Shown here: piece by piece, positions 13,527 to 53,734 of the stretch | Layout of the letters: every line of letters begins with the position of its first letter | Position numbering within the stretch: position 1 is the stretch's first letter | NCBI GenBank assembly: GCA_040388535.1 | Contig: JAZKBR010000002.1 | Coordinates: 774,838 to 838,837 of the forward strand | Length of the DNA: 64,000 bases | Origin: Gemmatimonadota bacterium | GTDB taxonomy: Bacteria; Gemmatimonadota; Gemmatimonadetes; Gemmatimonadales; GWC2-71-9 | Direction: 5' to 3' | Made by a program: the position numbers and the translations under genes | Notes under the pieces: generated by a model | What the model was told of the DNA's origin: nothing | The model's input: the letters and a program-made list of their open reading frames with translations, nothing else | Databases searched by the model: none

Positions 13527-14869
13527 CAGAAGTCGAAGTCACCTCCGATCGCTGGTTCAGCGAGTGGCGCGGGCGTGAGCTGTCACGCGTGGATGCGGCC
13601 GGGCTCACCTATCTCGACTATGGCGGCGCGGCGCTGCACCCGGCGTCGCTCCTCCGCGATGACCTCGCCCGGCTCGATCGCACGGTGCTCGGCAATCCCC
13701 ATTCGCAGCATGCCGCCTCACGCGGTGCCACGCATGATCTCGACGCTGCGCGCGAGGCAATCCTTGCCTTCCTCAACGCCGATCCGGACGAATACGCCGT
13801 GGTCCTGGTGGCGAATGCGTCGGCGGCGTGCCGCGTGGTGGGCGAAGCGTACCCGTTCGACGCAGCGACACCGCTGCTACTCACGGCCGACAACCACAAT
13901 TCGGTCAACGGTATTCGCGAGTTCGCGACCGGGCGTGGTGCCCTGGTTACCACCATTCCACTCGATGATGAATTGCAGTTGCTGGATCCGGTAGAGGTAC
14001 TGGCGCAGTCTAGCGGAGGGTATGGTGGCCTCCTCGGCTTTCCCGCGCAGTCGAACTTCTCGGGCGTGAGGCACTCCCTCGAACTCATCGACGTGGCACA
14101 CCAGCTCGGCTATCGCGTGCTGCTCGATGCAGCCGCCTATCTGCCGACGATGTCACTCGATCTCTCGGCGGTTCGCCCCGACTTTGTGGTGCTCTCGATC
14201 TACAAGATTGCCGGTTACCCGGCGGGGCTTGGCGCGCTGGTGGCCCGTCGTGACGCTCTTGCTGCGTTGCAGCGCCCCTGGTTCGCTGGCGGCACAGTGG
14301 AGTGGGCATCCGTGCAGAGCGGCGTGCACCGGTTGCGCCACGGCGCCGAAGGCTTCGAGGATGGGACGCCGCCGTTTCTCGCGGCCGGGGCGGTGCCGCC
14401 GGCACTTGCGATGGTACGTGGGCTGCAACCGCGGCTGCGCCGTCAGCTCGCCTCGCTCACCACCAGTATGCTCGACGGTCTCGGCGCACTGCGGCACGAG
14501 AATGACGCACCGCGGGTGTCAATCCACGGCCCGCGCAGTTGCGCCGACCGCGGCGCCACGGTGGCGTTTACCCTGCTTGAGGCCACCGGCGACGTGGTGC
14601 CGTTCTGGGAAGTGGAAGCGAAGGCATCCGACGCGGGCCTGGCGCTGCGTGGCGGCTGCTTCTGCAATCCTGGATGTGCCGAGCGGGCGCTCGACTTTCC
14701 GACCGATGCCGCATCCCGCTTCGCGGCGATCGGGCCGGCCTTCGATTATCCCCACGCGGCCGCAGCGCTCGGTCGGCGCGCCGTCGGGGCGTTGCGCGCC
14801 TCGCTCGGCCTCGGCAGCGTGCAGCGCGATGTGGACCGGCTGATGGAGTTTCTGCGGAACTACGGGTGA
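13520..14869 (+). CDS. Aminotransferase class V-fold PLP enzyme, MOCOS/NifS-like (putative cysteine desulfurase/sulfurase)
   Basis: 449 aa. GTG start overlaps the upstream gene by 7 nt. YLDYGGAAL, GNPHSQH, and the PLP-lysine context VVLSIYKIAGYPAGLGALVARRD, which resembles the N-terminal domain of molybdenum cofactor sulfurase. Confidence 0.75.
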   Translation: MLTEVEVTSDRWFSEWRGRELSRVDAAGLTYLDYGGAALHPASLLRDDLARLDRTVLGNPHSQHAASRGATHDLDAAREAILAFLNADPDEYAVVLVANASAACRVVGEAYPFDAATPLLLTADNHNSVNGIREFATGRGALVTTIPLDDELQLLDPVEVLAQSSGGYGGLLGFPAQSNFSGVRHSLELIDVAHQLGYRVLLDAAAYLPTMSLDLSAVRPDFVVLSIYKIAGYPAGLGALVARRDALAALQRPWFAGGTVEWASVQSGVHRLRHGAEGFEDGTPPFLAAGAVPPALAMVRGLQPRLRRQLASLTTSMLDGLGALRHENDAPRVSIHGPRSCADRGATVAFTLLEATGDVVPFWEVEAKASDAGLALRGGCFCNPGCAERALDFPTDAASRFAAIGPAFDYPHAAAALGRRAVGALRASLGLGSVQRDVDRLMEFLRNYG

Positions 14870-14937
14870 TGGGTGATGGGTGACGGGTCGGAGTGTCATC
14901 CTGCACTCCCCATCACCCGTGACCCATCACCCGTCCC
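14864..14937. repeat. (GGGTGAT)n heptamer array and its inverted complement forming a hairpin between convergent genes
   Basis: Left arm 14864-14891: gggtgat gggtgat gggtgac gggtcgg. Centre: ggagtgtcatcctgcactcc. Right arm 14912-14939: atcaccc gtgaccc atcaccc gtccccc. The TGA stop of the PLP gene (14867-14869) lies inside the array. Confidence 0.8.
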
Positions 14938-22931: not shown

Positions 22932-22940
22932 TGCAGGAGG

Positions 22941-22969
22941 GGTGATGGGTGATGGGTGATGGATGATGG
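22941..22969. repeat. (GGTGATG)4 heptamer tandem array
   Basis: ggtgatg ggtgatg ggtgatg gatgatg, starting 10 nt after the flotillin stop (TGA 22929-22931). Same unit as at 14864. Confidence 0.85.
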
Positions 22970-22973
22970 AGTT

Positions 22974-23138
22974 GTCACCCTGAGCAACGCGAGGGGGCGG
23001 AGCACCGTTTTTGTGACGGCGCTCCGCCCCCTCACTTCGTTCAGGGTGACAGCAATTCAGGAGAGCTCCGCCCCCTCACTTCGTTCAGGGTGACAGCGCG
23101 GGCGCCGGACTCCGCCCCCTCGCTTTGCTCAGGGCGAC
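22974..23138. repeat. Four copies of a 30-nt REP-like unit (1 forward, 3 reverse); the first pair forms a hairpin
   Basis: 22974-23003 gtcaccctgagcaacgcgagggggcggagc. 23021-23050 and 23065-23094 both read gctccgccccctcacttcgttcagggtgac (identical). 23110-23138 ctccgccccctcgctttgctcagggcgac. Lies between convergent genes. Confidence 0.85.
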
Positions 23139-23154
23139 GAGTGCCCGATATCAG

Positions 23155-36223: not shown

Positions 36224-36337
36224 CTCTCTTCCCCCGTCCGGGCGGGCCGGTGGGTGGGTGGTCTCTGTTGGAATGGGGCTCCGTACGAGGGGAATGTTCC
36301 AGAGGTTGCAAAGTGCGACAAAGCCGAAAAGCGAGAA

Positions 36338-36388
36338 GGGGGAAGGGGGAAGGGGGGAAGGGAGGAGGGGAAGGGGGCAGGGGGCAGG
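36338..36388 (+). repeat. Polypurine tract with seven G3-6 runs (G-quadruplex-capable) in the divergent lipoprotein/thiC control region
   Basis: gggggaagggggaaggggggaagggaggaggggaagggggcagggggcagg, read directly. Lies ~27 nt upstream of the TPP riboswitch and 115 nt upstream of the lipoprotein ATG on the other strand. Confidence 0.85.
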
Positions 36389-36414
36389 CGGCGAGGCTAC
36401 CCCGTATCTTTTCG

Positions 36415-38212
<1,798 letters not shown>

Positions 38213-40838: not shown

Positions 40839-40976
40839 GGATTCGCGGGCGTTGAGTCGTGGGTGCCTCGGAGCGGCCTTTACAGCCGTCGCTCACGATG
40901 GCTGGTATCGCTAGCGCGATCGCGGGCGGCTGTAACAGACGCGGAGAGGCAGCCCACGAGCAACGCTAGCGAATCC
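40839..40976. repeat. 138-bp palindromic (MITE-like) element, copy L
   Basis: Termini ggattcgcgggcgttgagtcgtgggtgcctc (40839-40869) and gaggcagcccacgagcaacgctagcgaatcc (40946-40976) are imperfect inverted repeats. The inner part also pairs (ttacagccg...cggctgtaa). Confidence 0.75.
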
Positions 40977-41076
40977 GTGGCTCGTGAGGCGCGCGCGGAG
41001 AGGGAGCCGACGGCGTAACGCCCTGCGCAGCGAGACCCGCGCTACCTTTGCTGCACTCTTTTTCGGGAGCCCGCCC

Positions 41077-42834
41077 GTGGTTCGTCGCCTCGCGCCATTC
41101 GCCTGCCTCTGCCTCCTCGCGATGCCGCTCGCCGCCCAGTCGCGCGATGCCAGCGTTCCCGACCTGGTTGCACTGATGGCACAGCCCAAGAGCGAGATCG
41201 CCCAGGTGCTCGACCGCTGGCAGAGTGACCGCGGCGCGCTGAGCCGGCGCTACACGACCGAATATTCCACGGTGAGGCGTGAGCGGTTCCGGAGCTTCAA
41301 CACCACCTGGCGCGCCCAACTCAAGGCGCTGCCCTTCGAGAAGCTGTCGCGACCCGCGCAGGTGGACTACCTGCTGCTCGACAACAAGCTCCGTTACGAA
41401 CTCGGCCTCCTCGACCGCGAGGCAAAGCTGGCCGGTGAGATGACGGCACTGTTGCCCTTCGCGGACACCCTCGCGGCACTGCTCGAGGCACGCCGGACCC
41501 TGCAGCGCCCCGATCCGGCCACTACGGCGCGAACCATCGCATGGATGACGAGCCAGATCGACAAGACGAGCAAGGGCCTCGGCAACACCGATGGCGTGCC
41601 GACCGGCGTCAAGGCGACGAAGATCGTGGCCTACCGCGCCGCCGATGCGATCGCCGGATACAAGCGGCAGTTCGCGGCCTGGCTCCGCTTCTATCAGGGC
41701 TATGACGCGCAGATCACCTGGTGGATCGCCGATCCCGCGAAGAAGTTCGACGCGGCGCTCGACAGCTATCGCAAGGCACTGCGTGAGAAGGTTGTGGGCG
41801 CCAGGGAAGGACAGGATGAACCGATCGTCGGCGACCCGATCGGCGCCGACGGACTCGCGGTGGACCTCGCGGGCGAGATGATTCCCTACACTCCGGCCGA
41901 ACTGATCGCCATCGCCGAAAAGGAGTATGCCTTTCTCGAAACCGAGGCGAAGCGCGCCGCGCGAGAGATGGGTTTTGGTGATGACTGGAAGGCCGCACTC
42001 GAGAAGGTGAAGACCGAGTATCCACCCGTCGGCGAGCAGGTCACTGCCGTGCGTGACATGGCCTGGGAGGCCACCCGATACGTCGAAGAGCACAACCTCG
42101 TCACCGTACCGGCGCTCGCCAAGGAAGTCTGGCGGATGGAGATGATGACGCCGGAGGCGCAGAAAACCAATCCGTTCTTCCTCGGCGGCGAAGTGATCCA
42201 GGTCTCATCACCGACTGATGCGATGAGTGAAGAGGAGAAGGTGCAGGCGCTGCGCGCGAACAATGCGCCGATGTCCCGCGCCACCGTGCAGCACGAGCTG
42301 ATCCCCGGACATCACCTGCAAGGGTTCATGGCCGATCGCAACAACACCCAGCGCGGCATCTTCGACACTCCATTCTATGTGGAAGGGTGGTCGCTCTGGT
42401 GGGAACTCCATCTCTGGGACCTCGGCTTCCACTCCACCCCCGACCAGCGCATGGGGGCACTCTTCTGGCGGATGCATCGCGCGGCGCGGATCATCTTTTC
42501 CCTCAAGTTCCACCTCGGCGAGTGGACGCCGCAGCAGTGCATCGACTTCCTCGTCGACAAGGTGGGCCACGAGCGCGCCTCAGCCACTGGCGAGGTGCGA
42601 CGCTCCTTCAACGGCAACTATTCGCCGCTTTACCAGGCGGGCTACCTGCTTGGCGGGATGCAGCTGCGGTCGCTCTATGGCGATGTGGTGAAGGGGAAGA
42701 AGATGACCGAACGGCAGTTCCACGACGCGGTTCTCGCGACCGGACCGATGCCGATCGAGATGGTGCGCGCACTGCTGAAGCCCGAGGTCCCGCTCAAGCG
42801 CGACTACGTGGCGAACTGGCGCTTTTCGGACTAG
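41077..42834 (+). CDS. DUF885 family protein (putative secreted metallopeptidase-like)
   Basis: ORF 40984..42834 trimmed to GTG 41077 (VVRRLAPFACLCLLAMPLAAQ signal). HELIPGHHLQ motif characteristic of DUF885. Confidence 0.8.
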   Translation: MVRRLAPFACLCLLAMPLAAQSRDASVPDLVALMAQPKSEIAQVLDRWQSDRGALSRRYTTEYSTVRRERFRSFNTTWRAQLKALPFEKLSRPAQVDYLLLDNKLRYELGLLDREAKLAGEMTALLPFADTLAALLEARRTLQRPDPATTARTIAWMTSQIDKTSKGLGNTDGVPTGVKATKIVAYRAADAIAGYKRQFAAWLRFYQGYDAQITWWIADPAKKFDAALDSYRKALREKVVGAREGQDEPIVGDPIGADGLAVDLAGEMIPYTPAELIAIAEKEYAFLETEAKRAAREMGFGDDWKAALEKVKTEYPPVGEQVTAVRDMAWEATRYVEEHNLVTVPALAKEVWRMEMMTPEAQKTNPFFLGGEVIQVSSPTDAMSEEEKVQALRANNAPMSRATVQHELIPGHHLQGFMADRNNTQRGIFDTPFYVEGWSLWWELHLWDLGFHSTPDQRMGALFWRMHRAARIIFSLKFHLGEWTPQQCIDFLVDKVGHERASATGEVRRSFNGNYSPLYQAGYLLGGMQLRSLYGDVVKGKKMTERQFHDAVLATGPMPIEMVRALLKPEVPLKRDYVANWRFSD

Positions 42835-42876: not shown

Positions 42877-42925
42877 CCGATCCTCGAGACGCCGGACGCC
42901 CCGAGCAACACCGCTGACTCCGTCC

Positions 42926-43076
42926 GGATTCGCCGGCGTTGCTCGTGGGCTGCCTCTCCGCAGCCCAACGGAGTCCCGACGGCGGTTCGAGCTGGCGACA
43001 TTAGAGCTGGTGCGCGGCGCCTCCGAGTCTGCTACGAGGCACCCACGACTCAACGCCTGCGAATCCCCTTCTCCAG
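42926..43076. repeat. 151-bp palindromic (MITE-like) element, copy R, inverted relative to copy L
   Basis: Termini ggattcgccggcgttgctcgtgggctgcctc (42926-42956) and gaggcacccacgactcaacgcctgcgaatcc (43046-43076). The reverse complement of the right terminus matches the left terminus of copy L at 30/31 positions. Central ~90 nt are unrelated to copy L. Confidence 0.75.
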
Positions 43077-43083
43077 TCTCTAG

Positions 43084-43118
43084 TCTCTAGTCTCTAGTCT
43101 CTGCTCTGTCGATCTGAC
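43084..43118. repeat. (GTCTCTA)n heptamer array, single arm, upstream of hsp20
   Basis: cag tctcta gtctcta gtctcta gtctctg ctctg: three perfect units plus degenerate units. Abuts copy R of the palindromic element. Confidence 0.85.
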
Positions 43119-43660: not shown

Positions 43661-43673
43661 CGACCAAGTACTG

Positions 43674-43794
43674 GAGACTAGAGACTAGAGGCTAGAGACT
43701 AGAGACGGCAGTCCGGGCAGTCGGTCCGCAATAGAGCTTCCGGATGACCCCCTCTAGTCTCTAGTCTCTAGTCTCTAGTCTCTAGTCTCCTCTC
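43674..43794. repeat. Inverted heptamer arrays (GAGACTA)4.7 - 46-nt spacer - (TCTAGTC)5 forming a long hairpin after hsp20
   Basis: 43674-43706 gagacta gagacta gaggcta gagacta gagac. 43753-43787 tctagtc x5, then tcctctc. The arms are reverse complements. Confidence 0.9.
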
Positions 43795-46624: not shown

Positions 46625-47737
46625 ATGCGTCATCTGTGGCTCCCACTGGTAGTCATCGCGGTTCCGGTTGCAGCGCAAACCCCGGCGAAATGGCGGCTGG
46701 TGCCGGAAGTGACGTACGGTGCTGCCGATGAGTCGGCTGGGGAGCTCTCGGATGTGCGGGGGATCGAGGTCGCCAAGAACGGCAATGTGCTGGTGCTCGA
46801 CTACAAGGCGCAGGCGGTGAAGCTGTTTGCACCCGATGGCAAGTTCATCAGGAACATTGGCCGGGGCGGCGGCGGACCAGCGGAGTACGAGACCCCTAAT
46901 GGTTTTACGCGCGCCCCCGACGGTACCATCTGGATCAACGACCCGGGAAACAACCGCGTGACTATTCTTCGCGAAGATGGCACGCTGGTCAAGACAATGC
47001 CGCGCGACGTCCATACCTACGGTTTCATCTGGGATGGCAAGTTCGATCGTCAGGGTCGGCTGATGCAGGGCGTCTCCGCCCCCCCGCCGCGAGGTTATCG
47101 CCTTCAGCGAACGAACTACCTGACGGGGCAGGCCGACAGCCTGGTCCCTCGCGGATGTGTGCCGCCCGAGGTGGTCGCAGACACGAGGCCTTCCTCGTAC
47201 AGCTTCCGCAGCAAAACTGGCGGAGGGACCACCATGGGGATCCCGTTCACGCCGGACATGATGAAGGTGGTCCATCCGGCAGGATACATCTGGTGCGCCT
47301 ACGGATCGACCTACACGGTATACCGGATTGGACTGGAGAAGGGCGATACCCTTGGAGTCATTCGCGGAGAGGCGCCGGCGCTTCCGATCCCAGCCAGTGT
47401 ACGCGATGCGGCCATCGCCAACATCAAGGAGATCGCCTCGAAGTACGGCGAGCCGAATTACTCGCCGGCCGGGATACCCACCAGCTATCCGCGCCTCCAC
47501 GAACTGCAGATCGACGATCGCGACAGGATCTGGGTTGGCCTCACTCCCGTTGGCACACCGGAAGCGCGATACGATGTCTACAGCGCCGATGGAAAGCTGG
47601 TGGCGAAGGCTTCGATTCCCTCGAGGCTCAAGGGGTATCTCTCCTTTGTGTTCCGTGGCGACAAGCTCTATGCGCTCGCCCAGGATGCCGATGATGTGCC
47701 ATTGGTCATGCGCTTTCGCATCGAGGTCGTGAAATGA
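46625..47737 (+). CDS. Secreted 6-bladed beta-propeller (NHL/TolB-like) protein, paralog 1
   Basis: 370 aa. Signal MRHLWLPLVVIAVPVAAQ. Motif FIRNIGRGGGGPAEYETP (G.GPGE-type). Repeated D/N-G blade segments. Confidence 0.7.
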   Translation: MRHLWLPLVVIAVPVAAQTPAKWRLVPEVTYGAADESAGELSDVRGIEVAKNGNVLVLDYKAQAVKLFAPDGKFIRNIGRGGGGPAEYETPNGFTRAPDGTIWINDPGNNRVTILREDGTLVKTMPRDVHTYGFIWDGKFDRQGRLMQGVSAPPPRGYRLQRTNYLTGQADSLVPRGCVPPEVVADTRPSSYSFRSKTGGGTTMGIPFTPDMMKVVHPAGYIWCAYGSTYTVYRIGLEKGDTLGVIRGEAPALPIPASVRDAAIANIKEIASKYGEPNYSPAGIPTSYPRLHELQIDDRDRIWVGLTPVGTPEARYDVYSADGKLVAKASIPSRLKGYLSFVFRGDKLYALAQDADDVPLVMRFRIEVVK

Positions 47738-49083
47738 CACCACTCTCCCGCCGCACCTTCGTCGCCACGGCCGGCCTCGCCGTGCCGGCGCTGCAGCGCA
47801 TTCGCCCCGCGATCGCGGTTGCCGGTAGCGACGACCGGATGGCCTGGTGGCGCGAGGCACGCTTCGGGCTCTTTCTGCACTGGGGCCTCTATTCGATTCT
47901 CGCCGGAAAGTGGAAGGACGACGGGCGGTGGGCCGAATGGATCCGCAACAATGCCCAGATTCCGGTCAAGGAATACGACGAACTCCTGAAGCAGTGGAAC
48001 CCCACCGCGTTCGATCCCGACGAATGGGCCTCGCTCGCCAAGCGCGCGGGAATGAAATACGCCGTGCTCACCACCAAGCATCACGACGGCTTCTGCCTCT
48101 GGGACTCCCCGCTCGGCGATTTCGATGTGATGGCGACGCCGAGCCAGCGGGATATCTGTCGCGATCTGGCGAAGGCGCTCCGCAAGCGAGACATCCGGGT
48201 GGGATGGTATCACTCGATCATGGACTGGCATCACCACGATTACCTGCCGCGCCGCGACTGGGAACTCGCCACGCGGCCGGTGGGTGATGCGCGTTTTGAC
48301 CGCTACGTGACCTACCTGCACACCCAGGTCGACGAACTGCTCAGCAACTATGGCCCGATCGACATCCTCTGGTTCGATGGCCAGTGGGAAGCGACCTGGA
48401 CTCACAAGCTCGCCCTCGCGCTCGAGGCGCAGATCCGCGAGAAGGCGCCGAAGCTCCTGATCAACAACCGGATTGACGGCAGCGGCGCGCCGAAGGGGAG
48501 TGAACTCGGCGACTTCGGCACCCCGGAGCAAAAGATTCCGGCGACCGGCATCCCTGGCGAAGACTGGGAATCGTGCATCACGATGAACGACAACTGGGGC
48601 TACAAGGCGAGCGACCAGAACTGGAAGACGCCGCGCAAGCTCGTCGAGATCCTGGTGGAGACCGCGTCGAAGGGCGGCAATCTGCTGCTGAATGTTGGCC
48701 CGATGGGTGATGGCCGTTTTCCACCGGAGGCCGTCACCCGGATGGAGGCGATCGGCGCCTGGATGCGAGTCCACGGCAAGGCGATCTACGGCACCACGGC
48801 GTCACGCTTCGCCGACCCGAAGGGATTTCTCTCGACCACCGCCGGCGAGCGGCAGCTGCACCTCTTCGTGCTCGACTGGAAGCCGGGGCCGCTGGCGTTG
48901 CCGGGGTTGCAGAGCCGTCCGGAGAAGGCGCTCCTTCTCGGCGCGAAGGACATTCCCTTGCCGGTAGCGGTCGCCAACGGAGTGATGTCGGTGATGCTCC
49001 CCGAGGTCGCGCCCGATTCGCTGCTGCCGGTGATCACGCTTCGGTTCGAGGAGCCGATCCGGTTCGAGGCGGCGGCGAAGTAA
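47734..49083 (+). CDS. Alpha-L-fucosidase (GH29), Tat-exported
   Basis: 449 aa. Tat signal SRRTFVATAGLAVPAL; RFGLFLHWGLYS, AGMKYAVLTTKHHDGFCLWDS, WFDGQWE, NVGP. ATG overlaps the upstream stop. Confidence 0.9.
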   Translation: MTPLSRRTFVATAGLAVPALQRIRPAIAVAGSDDRMAWWREARFGLFLHWGLYSILAGKWKDDGRWAEWIRNNAQIPVKEYDELLKQWNPTAFDPDEWASLAKRAGMKYAVLTTKHHDGFCLWDSPLGDFDVMATPSQRDICRDLAKALRKRDIRVGWYHSIMDWHHHDYLPRRDWELATRPVGDARFDRYVTYLHTQVDELLSNYGPIDILWFDGQWEATWTHKLALALEAQIREKAPKLLINNRIDGSGAPKGSELGDFGTPEQKIPATGIPGEDWESCITMNDNWGYKASDQNWKTPRKLVEILVETASKGGNLLLNVGPMGDGRFPPEAVTRMEAIGAWMRVHGKAIYGTTASRFADPKGFLSTTAGERQLHLFVLDWKPGPLALPGLQSRPEKALLLGAKDIPLPVAVANGVMSVMLPEVAPDSLLPVITLRFEEPIRFEAAAK

Positions 49084-49137
49084 GCTTTGCTCCGCGCGGC
49101 GCGTTCTGTGGGGTCCCCCGCTCAGTCGAGGTCATTG

Positions 49138-50211
49138 ATGAAGGGTCGCACCCTGATTGCCGTGCTGATCGTGGCTGCCGTTCCCATGTCAGTGCATGGG
49201 CAGGCCCCTCCTCGTTGGCCAGTGATGGCCACGCCGGTGACCAGTATTGGTGACGCCAGCGATGACGAGCGGCAAGAGCTCCTTCGCGTAGGTGGCGCGA
49301 GACGCCTTTCCGATGGTCGAGTGCTGGTTTCCAATGGCAAACCGCACGAACTGCGGGTCTACAACGCTCAGGGGAAGTTTCTCTCCCGGATCGGACGGAG
49401 CGGCGGTGGACCGGGTGAGTTCCAGGGGCGCATCGACATCCTCTCGGTGCGGGGCGACACGGTGGTGCTCTTCGATCAGGGCAGCATGCGCTGGTCCGAA
49501 TTTCTGGTCAGTGGCAAGCTGCTGCAGGAATCGAAGGCCGGGCCGGGCACGGCGCCGGCACAGGTCGCCCTCTATCGCCGGACGCTGGTTCGCGACCTGC
49601 CGAATGCCCTCAATCACTGCGCGGTCGAGCTGCTCGATGCGCTTGTGGCCGTGCCGCCGCCAGCATTGCGAGAAGCCTTGCCCGATGGCGCAGGTCGATT
49701 CTGGGTGCGGCTCGATACCTCGCCGGTCTGGTCCGTCTACTCGCCCGCCGGGCGGCCGGTGGCATCCGTTCAGCTTCCTGCGGGCCTGGAACTCTTTCAG
49801 GTCACCGACGGCTTTGTCGTTGGCCGCCTCAAGGACCGCGACGATGTCGAGCGCGTTGTGGTCCTTCGGGTGAACTCGCCCCGCGCCGTTGGCAGCAGGG
49901 CGCGGTGCGAGGGAGTGAAGGACACGCTCCCCGCTGCCACCGGGCCCCGACTCGCCGAGCTCAAGGGCGTGATGCGAAGCGCGATGACGGCTGCTGAGAT
50001 GGCCTACTCCGACGTCGGCCACTACGTCTCGACTGCCGATTCGCTGCAGCTGAAGCTTCCAGCCGATGTCAGATTCAGGATTCTCCGGTCGACCGCGGCG
50101 GGGTGGGCGGCCGTCGTTTTCGACCTTCGCTCGACGCTGGCATGCACCTTTGGTATTGGTGACGCGGCCCCGCTGGGCTGGCCGGAAGGGATGCTGCGCT
50201 GCGGCCCCTGA
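49138..50211 (+). CDS. Secreted 6-bladed beta-propeller protein, paralog 2
   Basis: ORF 49087..50211 trimmed to ATG 49138 (MKGRTLIAVLIVAAVPMSVHGQ). FLSRIGRSGGGPGEFQG motif. Confidence 0.7.
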   Translation: MKGRTLIAVLIVAAVPMSVHGQAPPRWPVMATPVTSIGDASDDERQELLRVGGARRLSDGRVLVSNGKPHELRVYNAQGKFLSRIGRSGGGPGEFQGRIDILSVRGDTVVLFDQGSMRWSEFLVSGKLLQESKAGPGTAPAQVALYRRTLVRDLPNALNHCAVELLDALVAVPPPALREALPDGAGRFWVRLDTSPVWSVYSPAGRPVASVQLPAGLELFQVTDGFVVGRLKDRDDVERVVVLRVNSPRAVGSRARCEGVKDTLPAATGPRLAELKGVMRSAMTAAEMAYSDVGHYVSTADSLQLKLPADVRFRILRSTAAGWAAVVFDLRSTLACTFGIGDAAPLGWPEGMLRCGP

Positions 50212-50313
50212 CCCCGCGCGTCACGGAACCGGCAATCTGACCGGTGGGGTGTGCAAAGAACGGGCGCTCGCCCGTCCCGTCAGCCACACTCACCCCAGGT
50301 TGCGGAGTACCCG

Positions 50314-50889
50314 ATGGCTACCAATCGCAAGAAAGTTCCTGCCGGCAAGAAGGCCCCGGCCCGGCGTACCGCGTCCGCCGAAGCGGCGACGCCACTGCTC
50401 TATCCCACCAAGAACGACCTGCCGTCGGCCACGCGCTCGGAGGTCGTCGCCCTCCTCAACCAGCGTCTCGCCGAATGCATCGAGTTGCAGACGCAATGCA
50501 AGCAGGCCCACTGGAATGTGAAGGGGCGCGACTTCATCGCCCTGCACAAGCTCTTCGATGAGATCAACGAGTCAGTTGAGGAATACATCGACGAAATCGC
50601 CGAACGGATCGTGCAGCTCGGCGGGATCGCCGAAGGCACGGTGCGGATCGTGGCCGCGCGTTCGGACCTGATTGATTACCCGTTGGTACTCACCTCCGGG
50701 GACGAGCACGCCGCGGCGCTTTCCGATTCGCTTTCGTCGTTCGCTCGCTCGACGCGCATGGGGATCGAGGAGATGGACGACCTCCACGACGCCGTGAGCC
50801 AGGACATGCTCACCGAGATTACCCGCGGGACCGACCAATGGCTCTGGTTCGTGGAATCACACCTCGTGGACCGCGGCCCCAAGGGGTGA
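50314..50889 (+). CDS. dps: Dps (DNA-binding ferritin-like protein) with Lys/Ala-rich N-terminal tail
   Basis: ORF 50251..50889 trimmed to ATG 50314 (MATNRKKVPAGKKAPARR). Ferroxidase-site context QAHWNVKGRDFIALHKLFDE ... DEIAERI. Confidence 0.9.
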   Translation: MATNRKKVPAGKKAPARRTASAEAATPLLYPTKNDLPSATRSEVVALLNQRLAECIELQTQCKQAHWNVKGRDFIALHKLFDEINESVEEYIDEIAERIVQLGGIAEGTVRIVAARSDLIDYPLVLTSGDEHAAALSDSLSSFARSTRMGIEEMDDLHDAVSQDMLTEITRGTDQWLWFVESHLVDRGPKG

Positions 50890-50928
50890 TACCTTAGGGA
50901 GTCTGCCGCCTCGACCCGGGAGTGTGCC

Positions 50929-51306
50929 ATGCGTGTCGCCGCGCTTCTCCTCGCTGCTCTTGTCGCACCGCTCCCACTGCTCGCGCAGTATCCGGAGCCA
51001 GGGACCTATTCGGCGGGCGCTACGCCCGCCGGATCGTCCCAGATCATTCCGCTCAAACTCATCGTGGAAAAGCGGGGCGACTCGACCCTGGTGCATATGT
51101 CGCAGCCCGGCGACAAGGGCGACAACCAGCTGCCAATGGTCGATCAGCGTGCCTACAAGTCCGGGTTCGAGATCGTCCTCGGCGTCGTCGATGGCGGGCT
51201 CGCCTGCCGGTTTGCTCCCCCCAACAAGGACGGACGATGGGAGGCGAACTGCGAGGACCCGGACCATACCGCGCTCTACCAGTTCTTTTTCAAGAAGGGC
51301 TCCTGA
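50929..51306 (+). CDS. Small secreted hypothetical protein
   Basis: 125 aa. Signal MRVAALLLAALVAPLPLLAQ. No motif recognised. Confidence 0.45.
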   Translation: MRVAALLLAALVAPLPLLAQYPEPGTYSAGATPAGSSQIIPLKLIVEKRGDSTLVHMSQPGDKGDNQLPMVDQRAYKSGFEIVLGVVDGGLACRFAPPNKDGRWEANCEDPDHTALYQFFFKKGS

Positions 51307-51906
51307 GTGGGCGCGCCGGCGCGGCACCGGATTCGATTCGGTGATGGCGATGTGCTGCAATTCCGGATCGAACTCGATGGCATCCTGCCCGTCGTCTGGC
51401 GACGGGTGGCTGTCTCGGGTCGCGCTTCGCTGCAGGAGCTGCACGGGGTAATCCAGCGGGCGATGGGGCGCGCGGCCGACGGCGCCTATGCCTTCGACGT
51501 CGACGGCGTCCGGTATCACGATCCGATGGACGATCCGCAGCCCGGACACGAAGCCGACGAGATCTCGCTCGAAATGCTCGAGCTGCACCCTGGCGCGGTC
51601 GCCTTTCACATCGCCGAACATCACGGCGAACCGTGGCACGACCGGATCATTCTCGAACTGGTCTCCCCGCGGATGGTCGGGCAGCGCCTGCCGACCTGCC
51701 TCGCCGGCGGACGTGCCGCTCCACCAGATGATTGCGATGGCGCCACCGAGTATCGCGAGATGCTCGCCTCGCTCGCCGAGCCGCTCGACCCGAGATCGGC
51801 CGAGCTGCGCTCCTGGCTGCCCGAGGAATTCGATCCGGAGTACGTCGACCTGATTGCCATCAACGCGTCGCTCGCGAGGACGCCGAAACACCGCCCTGCT
51901 GCGTGA
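51307..51906 (+). CDS. pRiA4b ORF-3-like (PRiA4_ORF3 family) protein
   Basis: 199 aa. GTG start directly after the upstream stop. LQFRIELDGILPVVWRRVAVSGRASLQELHGVIQRAMG matches the family's N-terminal signature (..PPIWRR..VP....L.DLH..IQ.AMGW). Confidence 0.6.
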   Translation: MGAPARHRIRFGDGDVLQFRIELDGILPVVWRRVAVSGRASLQELHGVIQRAMGRAADGAYAFDVDGVRYHDPMDDPQPGHEADEISLEMLELHPGAVAFHIAEHHGEPWHDRIILELVSPRMVGQRLPTCLAGGRAAPPDDCDGATEYREMLASLAEPLDPRSAELRSWLPEEFDPEYVDLIAINASLARTPKHRPAA

Positions 51907-51911
51907 AGCGC

Positions 51912-52058
51912 AGAGACTTGAGATGAGAGACTAGCGACTAGAGACTAGAGACTAGAGACTAGAGACTAGAGACTAGAGGGTGTGTTGCCGGTATATTTTT
52001 CCACTTGGCTGCGACACCACTGTTCTCTAGTCTCTAGTCTCTCATCTCTAGTCTCTCT
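51912..52058. repeat. Inverted heptamer arrays: (TAGAGAC)~9 - 45-nt spacer - (TCTCTAG)5, asymmetric arms
   Basis: 51912-51978 agagacttgagatgagagac tagcgac (tagagac)x5 tagag. 52024-52058 tctctag tctctag tctctca tctctag tctctct. The variant unit gagatga is mirrored in both arms. Ends 11 nt before the amidohydrolase ATG (52070). Confidence 0.9.
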
Positions 52059-52069
52059 GCAGGTACCCC

Positions 52070-53734
<1,665 letters not shown>

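Follow-up and report, generated by a model that had tools for sequence, protein, structure and literature searches.

A CTAGAGA heptamer array with inverted arms between two co-directional genes of a Gemmatimonadota bacterium

The intergenic region at positions 51912-52058 of a 64,000-nucleotide (nt) stretch of contig JAZKBR010000002.1 from a Gemmatimonadota bacterium (this whole stretch is referred to as the window) contains two inverted arrays of a 7-nt unit, CTAGAGA. They are located between a PRiA4_ORF3-like gene and an amidohydrolase gene. With moderate confidence, we favor the joint reading that the locus is an instance of the bacterial heptamer-repeat class and that its predicted hairpin most likely acts at the RNA level, as a 3'-end or intercistronic structure. 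The class has been described before, including inverted pairs; new here are the phylum and the unit. Like other heptameric simple sequence repeats (SSRs), the locus is made up of tandem 7-nt units in a setting with an excess of period 7, lies close to a stop codon with the purine-rich strand in sense orientation, and varies among close relatives (sister species).

Inverted arms and predicted hairpin

The left arm spans positions 51912-51978 of the plus strand. Tandem Repeats Finder and direct reading identified it as a period-7 array with 9.6 copies of the consensus AGAGACT, which is CTAGAGA in a shifted register (score 106, 86% matches). From its outer end, the arm is made up of the variant units AGAGACT, TGAGATG, AGAGACT and AGCGACT, followed by five perfect units. 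Its sense strand is purine-rich, and TAG is present in all three frames of both strands. The arm is followed by a 45-nt spacer or loop (51979-52023, plus strand) with an AT-rich center, ggtatatttttcc, in which a consensus scan found no promoter. The flanks of the spacer (51979-51992 and 52003-52022, ggtgt/acacc) lengthen the stem. The right arm (52024-52058, plus strand) consists of about 4.7-5 units of TCTCTAG, which is the left-arm unit in reverse complement, and one of its units is the variant TCTCTCA; for positions 52024-52056, Tandem Repeats Finder reported period 7, 4.7 copies, a score of 52 and 84% matches. It is pyrimidine-rich on the sense strand, and 11 nt separate its end (52058) from the ATG of the amidohydrolase gene (52070). 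These results confirm the arm sequences, the spacer length and its AT-rich center, the stem-extending flanks and the start-codon distance given in an earlier reading of the sequence, here called the original prediction.

The original prediction also regarded the two arms as inverted copies, and more specifically the outer part of the left arm as a true copy of the right arm. The outer 33 nt of the left arm (51912-51944) are indeed 94% complementary to the right arm, and both arms share the variant unit TGAGAGA/TCTCTCA at a matching unit position. However, the inner register (51947-51978 against 52025-52056) is also 94% complementary, and the minimum-energy fold uses this inner register. Since both registers are equally complementary, it is the shared variant that carries the reading of the outer arm as the true copy, and the same variant unit recurs in arrays of other genomes (L089, L065). 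The more general claim that the arms are related inverted copies holds, given the shared variant and the joint change of both arms in the three lineages described below.

A transcript reading through the locus would fold into an imperfect stem of roughly 31 bp, further lengthened by the spacer. The main predicted hairpin covers positions 51940-52056 of the plus strand and pairs 51940-51951 with 52045-52056 (12 bp) and 51954-51972 with 52024-52042 (19 bp), the two helices being parted by a 2x2 internal loop at the variant unit. The plus-strand RNA fold has a predicted energy of -83 kcal/mol (z -6.8), and none of 200 shuffled sequences was as stable. For the minus strand, the RNA fold reaches -82.1 kcal/mol (z -7.25), and folding with DNA parameters gives -39 kcal/mol (z -6.6). 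When the five perfect inner units are deleted in silico, the outer register still forms a stem of equal length (-71.5 kcal/mol), which fits an insertion-like expansion of these units. Searching the whole window against Rfam 15 at gathering thresholds returned no RNA family at the locus and only a thiamine pyrophosphate (TPP) riboswitch elsewhere. A permissive Rfam scan of 51700-52300 yielded only sub-threshold matches to eukaryotic microRNA precursors, the best scoring 39.8 bits against a gathering threshold of 96.

The unit count of the window was taken from an assembly. In an independent short-read assembly, Logan SRR26324622 (L001, L002), the flanks and variant units are identical, and the contigs break inside both arms. 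Furthermore, the proteins flanking the locus are on record in one sample only. Due to the single sample and the contig breaks, length variation was assessed in sister species instead of the window's own species. Short-read contigs ending inside heptamer arrays were a recurrent observation (L001 1-44, L002 1-30 and 8153-8206, L128 1-55, L207 1-31), so that unit counts from assemblies need caution. In practical terms, heptamer arrays fragment short-read assemblies and can create or extend the ends of open reading frames (ORFs).

Position and strand of heptamer arrays

Judged from the 64-kb window, the source genome has a marked excess of period-7 repeats: we counted 9 perfect period-7 runs in the window where shuffling predicts 0.08, and each of the other periods from 4 to 12 has 0-1 runs. 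The same period dominates 657 kb of Gemmatimonadales-type metagenome and metagenome-assembled genome (MAG) sequence, in which we counted 45 arrays of period 7, 18 of period 9 and at most 4 of any other period.

To describe how such arrays are placed relative to genes, we collected 181 heptamer-array sites in about 1.5 Mb. Coding sequence contains 11 of the 181, and the flanks of the arrays comprise 151 gene 3' ends and 98 gene 5' ends. The median distance is 13 nt to the gene 3' end versus 64 nt to the 5' end. Convergent and divergent contexts occur in a ratio of 26:6, compared with a background of 74:85 (Fisher p 3.7e-4), and divergent gaps rarely hold arrays. Strand matters as well: among arrays located no more than 40 nt after a stop codon, the sense strand is purine-rich in 74 versus 28 cases (p 6e-6), and the count is 23 versus 8 when CTAGAGA-like units are excluded. 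Before start codons, no purine strand bias was found (25 versus 21). The array at 51912-52058 obeys both rules, with its purine-rich arm after the stop codon and its pyrimidine-rich arm before the next ORF. The recurrence, in this sample of mixed phyla, of the 3'-end and purine-sense biases known from Xanthomonas points to a general, testable, strand-specific cause.

The upstream neighbor of the array is the PRiA4_ORF3-like gene (51307-51906, plus strand; PF07929, E 1.6e-34). Its stop codon, TGA, occupies 51904-51906, and the left arm begins 5 nt later, a proximity not mentioned in the original prediction. Downstream lies the gene for an Amidohydro_3 amidohydrolase (52070-53734, plus strand; PF07969, E 7.6e-99) with a signal-peptide-like N-terminus, whose ATG agrees with that of its orthologs. 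The nearest named homologs of this amidohydrolase are proteins from Gemmatimonadales or Gemmatimonadota MAGs, with a best identity of 92%, and the taxonomic placement is based on these names. Both genes are part of a co-directional run at 47734-53734.

The original prediction had located the structure in or at the 5' untranslated region (UTR) or promoter of the amidohydrolase gene. Our results do not establish this placement: a consensus scan found no sigma-70-like promoter at the locus, the element abuts the upstream stop codon, and the class as a whole favors 3' ends. A promoter within the AT-rich spacer was rejected after inspection by eye, as the TATATT at 51992-51997 comes without an acceptable -35 hexamer at 16-18 nt. 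An intrinsic terminator was rejected as well. The consensus scan found no hairpin-plus-U terminator at the locus, and although a stem-loop is present, its 3' tail reads CUCUCUGCAGG, with no U-tract.

At positions 1-60000 of the window, 22 canonical hairpin-plus-U terminators were found compared with about 25.6 expected from shuffled sequence. This lack of excess indicates that gene ends must rely on something else. Sigma-70-type promoters are not in excess in the same region either (5 versus about 5.9 expected from shuffling), and the few promoter and terminator matches fall mostly within genes. The transcription signals of the organism are thus probably not of the Escherichia coli type. Most of the larger 3' intergenic gaps of the window contain strong hairpin-forming repeats. 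Together, the lack of a terminator excess and these repeats are compatible with a role of hairpins at 3' ends, for which they provide weak evidence.

The syntenic spacer in relatives and further arrays

The order of the PRiA4_ORF3-like and amidohydrolase genes is kept in relatives of 72-92% protein identity. About 12 of 14 syntenic spacers contain heptamer arrays, and units and copy numbers differ between them (percentages in the following are protein identities to the window). The window itself has 9.6 copies of AGAGACT and 4.7 of TCTCTAG in inverted orientation. L203 (92%), the closest relative found, has a 36-nt spacer with only three degenerate units (TCTCGTC x3). In L204 and L205 (87%), 2.4 copies of GCGAGAC are followed by TTCTCCC x3 in L204 or x6 in L205, and L206 (86%) has a direct array of ten GCGATGG units beginning at the stop codon. 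L208 (85%) contains a degenerate CCYTCGW x4 array; L209/L210 and L211 (87%) carry 5.7 and 4.7 copies of TGGATGR, respectively; and L212, L213 and L214 have CGATGRN-type arrays. Further relatives include L125 (75%), with GAGAGAC x3 and a GTCTCTC arm overlapping the ORF start, L126 (74%), with GCGAACA x2.4, and L127 (72%), in which GCGAGAA x4.7 and CGCTTCT x3.3 form an inverted pair around a 19-nt loop. The array is degenerate in L124 (74%), absent in L123 (76%), and represented by AACGACT x8 at the contig end in L128 (69%). This comparison shows a persistent array hotspot downstream of the PRiA4_ORF3-like gene, with complete turnover of the unit between species.

Sister-species strains provide direct evidence for whole-unit length change at this intergenic site on the time scale of strains. 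Over 6.4 kb, L204 and L205 share 99.47% identity and differ by 13 SNPs and one 21-nt gap, which corresponds to exactly three TTCTCCC units. They encode an identical amidohydrolase, and their array lies 15 nt before the ATG. Similarly, L210 and L211 encode identical proteins and are one TGGATGR unit apart. The original prediction had explained the extra left-arm units by replication slippage and named unit-number variation between strains as a test; the whole-unit differences at the orthologous spacer of sister species (L204/L205, and L209/L210 versus L211) support slippage.

Strong hairpins, defined by a z of -4 or lower, are found in only three of the 14 spacers, those of the window, L125 and L127 (z -4.5 to -6.1), with L204 and L205 being intermediate. 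The direct arrays at syntenic spacers are structured less than shuffled sequence (z +1 to +2). In each of the three hairpin lineages, the right arm complements its own left arm: GAGACTA/TAGTCTC in the window, and GAGACGA/TCGTCTC and GAGAAGC/GCTTCTC in the other two. Their left-arm units form a series of one- or two-base steps, which suggests that a common ancestral array with unit homogenization may lie behind the three lineages.

Some arrays at these spacers reach into the neighboring ORFs. In L125 (202-362; 75%), the right arm (CTCGTCTCT...GTCTCTCGTCTCT) lies within the start of the amidohydrolase ORF and encodes the signal-peptide part MSHRVVLVSLLASLVS. In L209 (1410-1480), L210 (94-152) and L212 (1209-1258), array units (TCGATGT, TCGATCA, TCGATGA) make up the final codons of the PRiA4_ORF3-like gene together with its stop codon, and the resulting protein has 206 amino acids versus 199. 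A stop codon built from array units means that arrays can extend into and remodel the 3' ends of ORFs. Two relatives also have arrays 3' of the amidohydrolase gene. In both cases, a pair of non-complementary arrays flanks a short GC-rich hairpin, CGTGAGT and GTCGTAA in L126 (3186-3260), and CGAGAAG and TACGACC in L127 (5676-5755).

Beyond these relatives, a scan of one genome per species for three consecutive TAGAGAC units yielded at least 120 loci. Those listed come from Vibrionaceae, Bacteroidota, Planctomycetota, Chloroflexota, Acidobacteriota, Gemmatimonadota and other groups, with a locus G+C content from 31% to 71%. About 18 of the at least 120 loci have an inverted partner array within approximately 130 nt, in a layout close to that of the window. 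In 838 kb from 120 loci among the matches listed, we counted 191 period-7 arrays and at most 16 of any other period, and in 59 of these 191 arrays the unit bears no relation to CTAGAGA. Loci of other phyla commonly hold compound arrays of unrelated heptamers (e.g., L017, L066, L111, L116). In viral contigs, the three-unit TAGAGAC query gave 6 matches, and four control heptamers with its base composition gave 7, 2, 12 and 5. One period-8 and one period-5 control (2 and 12 matches) are anecdotal and were not used. No nucleotide similarity was found at E 1e-10 to Gemmatimonadales MAG loci carrying CTAGAGA arrays, and within the literature searched, no paper prints two consecutive CTAGAGA units in any rotation.

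The original prediction had treated the CTAGAGA loci as special. This could not be upheld, since period 7 dominates the window, the relatives and the diverse loci, and the phenomenon had already been described (PMC4692102). A special cross-phylum CTAGAGA family was accordingly rejected, with unrelated heptamers occurring in the same loci and viral controls being about equally frequent. The simplest explanation for the spread of the unit across phyla is independent amplification.

The window contains a sister locus at 43670-43789 (plus strand), an inverted pair of 5.3 ACTAGAG and 5.4 CTCTAGT units around a 45-nt spacer (43707-43751) that is unrelated to the spacer at 51979-52023. It lies between co-directional genes and begins 9 nt past the hsp20 stop codon. 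A solo array of 4.7 TCTCTAG units (43070-43102, plus strand) is located about 175 nt upstream of hsp20 and begins 4 nt after an element resembling a REPIN, that is, an inverted doublet of repetitive extragenic palindromic (REP) sequences. Positions 43067-43101 are 91% complementary over 35 nt to 43674-43708 in the left arm downstream of hsp20, 572 nt away, so that pairing between the 5' and 3' regions of the hsp20 mRNA could compete with the local 3' hairpin. The tetramer CTAG is otherwise strongly avoided: of 31 occurrences in the window, 22 lie inside the five CTAGAGA arrays and 9 elsewhere, whereas palindromes of the same composition occur 105 (CATG), 129 (GTAC) and 122 (ACGT) times. Due to this scarcity, the CTAGAGA arrays concentrate an otherwise rare word.

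Other units are represented as well. An inverted pair at 14864-14932 (plus strand) consists of 3.6 copies of GGGTGAT (14864-14888), a 20-nt spacer and 3.4 copies of CCCATCA (14909-14932). It occupies a 76-nt gap between convergent genes, and the TGA stop codon of the plus-strand gene lies inside the first unit. A second GGGTGAT array (4.3 copies, 22940-22969), also between convergent genes, is followed within 22940-23141 by three copies of a 33-nt unit, GCTCCGCCCCCTCACTTCGTTCAGGGTGACAGC, spaced 44 nt apart, and an inverted copy of it occupies 22973-23008. These copies are hairpin-forming repeats of a second kind. A purine-rich array of 7.7 GAAGGGG units (36335-36396) lies directly upstream of the TPP riboswitch (36413-36516; Rfam RF00059, 65.7 bits) in an apparently divergent intergenic region, and is an exception to the 3'-end rule.

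Repeats with other architectures are found in the same window. Two elements of about 140 nt (40839-40977 and 42925-43066) flank a DUF885 gene (40984-42834) as mutual inverted copies, being 90-95% complementary to each other in two blocks of about 40 nt. Each is in itself a quasi-palindrome of the motif GGATTCGCnnGCGTTGnnTCGTGGG, as in REPIN-like doublets, and the right-hand one is the element that precedes the solo TCTCTAG array. At the start of the window, a 259-nt direct repeat (1769-2027 and 2303-2561; 71% identity, 534 nt apart) and a GGT/GGC-rich repeat of period 3/9/21 (2034-2093) both lie inside a large minus-strand ORF (2-2695), where they probably represent a repetitive protein region that is glycine-rich or similar.

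Competing explanations and known systems

Under the favored reading, the five perfect left-arm units would be a recent slippage expansion that gave rise to the asymmetry of 9.6 versus 4.7 units. Units would be homogenized within each arm, and the complementarity of the arms may be kept by hairpin-templated (quasipalindrome) copying or by selection for pairing. At the RNA level, the hairpin could serve as a terminator lacking a U-tract, as a block to 3' exonucleases or as an RNase III site. In any of these roles, it would leave the amidohydrolase gene partly uncoupled from the co-directional genes upstream, with a strength that drifts with the number of units.

Several observations weigh against this reading. 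Neither L203 nor most of the other syntenic copies have the hairpin, and many of them carry a direct array only, so that any function of the hairpin is either dispensable or lineage-specific. For the same reason, a conserved and dedicated role of the element in regulating the amidohydrolase is unlikely. The stem is not followed by a U-tract, and template switching alone can maintain the complementarity of the arms. The 3'-end bias could itself be functionless, with arrays being tolerated where promoters and ribosome-binding regions are least disturbed. Furthermore, the gene calls behind the position and strand statistics are crude (longest ORFs, with a filter on G+C at third codon positions, GC3, for high-GC loci), and the 120 diverse loci were chosen for carrying CTAGAGA arrays.

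The foremost alternative is that the array is a neutral by-product, in which slippage creates and resizes the arrays, template switching inverts them, and they persist mainly in 3' flanks, where they do the least harm. We regard this as a real possibility, although a less probable one than a hairpin acting at the RNA level. The unit, the copy number, the number of arms and even the presence of an array turn over fast at one syntenic site, L203 having only three degenerate units in its 36-nt spacer. Many unrelated units occur side by side, same-composition heptamers are about as frequent as CTAGAGA in viral contigs, and Rehm et al. found no regulatory role for such repeats (PMC4692102). Since nothing requires a function, this explanation is still strong. 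It has more difficulty with the purine-sense bias of 74 versus 28, for which a strand-specific cause has to be assumed; a bias between the replication strands could be such a cause. The matched changes of both arms in three lineages and the persistence of arrays at the site across lineages of only 72-92% protein identity also argue against it.

It seems unlikely to us that the array is a phase-variable contingency element located in the amidohydrolase gene's promoter or 5' UTR, with unit number setting expression as in hmw1A. The 11 nt between the right arm and the ATG would fit such an element, as would the sister-species array 15 nt before the ATG with 3 versus 6 units in strains that are 99.5% identical, the hmw-like architecture with about 10 left-arm repeats, and the overlap of the L125 right arm with the ORF start. 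However, no promoter-like site was detected at the locus, and the element just as much flanks the upstream gene on its 3' side. Since no -35/-10 spacer contains the arrays, a change in unit number would leave promoter spacing unchanged. The product is an ordinary secreted amidohydrolase and not a surface antigen, the element is absent in L203 and replaced by unrelated direct arrays elsewhere, and identical architectures occur in gaps between convergent genes, which offer nothing to regulate in this manner. An element acting at the DNA level, through sites for a specific protein, cruciforms or replication-pause sites, is less probable still. The CTAGAGA unit is present at three loci in 64 kb (five arrays) and, among the matches listed, at several loci of single genomes such as Vibrio albus and Gemmatimonadales bin.40; the hairpin is also stable as DNA, and CTAG is avoided outside the arrays (9 versus 105-129 for same-composition palindromes). 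A sequence-specific binder, though, would not tolerate unrelated units at orthologous sites, the 7-bp period mismatches the helical repeat, and no candidate protein was identified. Least credible is a mobile element of the miniature inverted-repeat transposable element (MITE) or REPIN type inserted as a unit, a candidate that we rejected. Two inverted arms with a spacer, about 150 nt in length, in an intergenic position, would suit it, and REPIN-like doublets are found nearby in the window. The two inverted CTAGAGA loci nevertheless share only the heptamer, with unrelated spacers and flanks; no target-site duplication flanks 51912 or 52058; and the arms are made up of 7-mers in variable number instead of a fixed palindromic unit of 20-40 nt.

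The reading of the hairpin as a 3'-end or intercistronic RNA structure can be extended to the class as a whole. In this speculative and rather improbable extension, heptamer arrays would be more than passive products of slippage and would form a cross-phylum, RNA-level "evolvable gene-end module". The upkeep and resizing of the purine-rich sense arm after the stop codon and of its complementary arm would depend on transcription and the hairpin, as reported for the hmw repeat and RNase III, and unit number would tune termination or processing between neighboring genes. If this were true, its signatures would be the strand rule, the joint changes of both arms in three lineages and the fact that arrays persist at one site despite complete unit turnover. 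The question of why 7-nt units dominate long bacterial tandem repeats, and whether they are functional, dates back to 2007. The present locus adds a well-resolved case from an under-studied phylum, in which length change, unit turnover and matched arms are seen in one spacer across 14 lineages. Together with the cross-phylum strand rule, this comparative series makes the question of 7-nt dominance somewhat more tractable.

Heptanucleotide repeats have been described as the most abundant long SSRs in many genomes, with polymerase slippage proposed as their origin (Mrazek 2007, as cited in PMC4679880 and PMC4692102). Among known repeats, those with the unit GGGNATC in Xanthomonas and Nostoc are the closest counterparts of the present locus. 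For Xanthomonas, Rehm et al. (2015, PMC4692102) reported GGGAATC arrays with 70-75 convergent (inverted) pairs per genome, located 0-50 bp from a stop codon or overlapping it, with the G-rich strand on the coding strand. These arrays are rare between divergent ORFs. Their length differs from species to species, but their type, single or paired, is retained; transcript starts and stops are more frequent at them than at controls, and no function was established (PMC4692102). The Gemmatimonadota arrays share the non-coding tandem 7-nt units, occurring singly or as inverted, stem-loop-forming pairs, the purine- or G-rich coding strand near stop codons with the complementary strand just upstream of ORFs, the rarity between divergent ORFs, and the variation of length and sequence at the same locus among related species (PMC4692102). 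In contrast to the GGGNATC repeats, they belong to a different phylum, and CTAGAGA lacks a G-tract, so that a G-quadruplex reading is inapplicable. Many unrelated units also occur per genome here, with unit turnover at one site between species. A further distinction is that length differences of whole units between near-identical strains, and matching changes of the two arms, are documented here.

The short tandemly repeated repetitive (STRR) heptamers of cyanobacteria and the TAACTGA repeats of Beggiatoaceae, Cyanobacteria and Bacteroidetes (MacGregor 2015, PMC4679880) are likewise abundant intergenic 7-nt repeats with a scattered phylogeny, and the TAACTGA unit is shared by distant phyla with no evident transfer mechanism. 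They differ in arrangement, as 169 TAACTGA repeats are direct and 1 is indirect, and they lie just upstream of starts (PMC4679880), whereas inverted pairs and a stop-codon bias are common among the arrays studied here.

An experimental precedent comes from Haemophilus influenzae, in which RNase III cuts the RNA hairpin formed by the (ATCTTTC)n heptamer repeats of hmw1A (Rapun-Araiz et al. 2025, PMC12721329), and changes in repeat number require both transcription and the hairpin (PMC12721329). As in hmw1A and hmw2A, a heptamer SSR lies upstream of a gene for a secreted protein, a long imperfect hairpin has about 10 repeats as its left arm, and the number of units is variable, in populations for hmw and between sister-species strains at this spacer (PMC12721329). 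The right arm of the hmw hairpin is a unique G-rich segment, whereas it is an inverted array here (PMC12721329). The hmw hairpin (-175 to -54) is part of a proven 5' UTR, is cut by RNase III and makes expression unit-dependent (PMC12721329), whereas the hairpin described here is predicted from sequence alone. The CTAGAGA element also differs in adjoining an upstream stop codon. A contingency locus of the hmw type would be expected to keep its tract across strains and close species; here, the spacer of L203, the closest relative found, has only degenerate units, and other relatives have unrelated direct arrays or none.

With REP sequences, bacterial interspersed mosaic elements (BIMEs) and REPINs, the array has in common that hairpin-forming inverted doublets occur in intergenic regions, often at gene 3' ends. 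REP elements stabilize upstream mRNA or attenuate transcription. They have a fixed palindromic unit of about 20-40 nt that a REP-associated tyrosine transposase (RAYT) disperses, in contrast to the variable-number tandem 7-mers and unrelated spacers found here. Intrinsic terminators resemble the array in having a stable stem-loop right after the stop codon, and also in occurring between convergent genes. Compared with such terminators, the array has no U-tract, a far longer stem of at least 31 bp with only about 43% G+C, and a structured spacer of 45 nt. RNase III substrates more typically have a duplex of this length.

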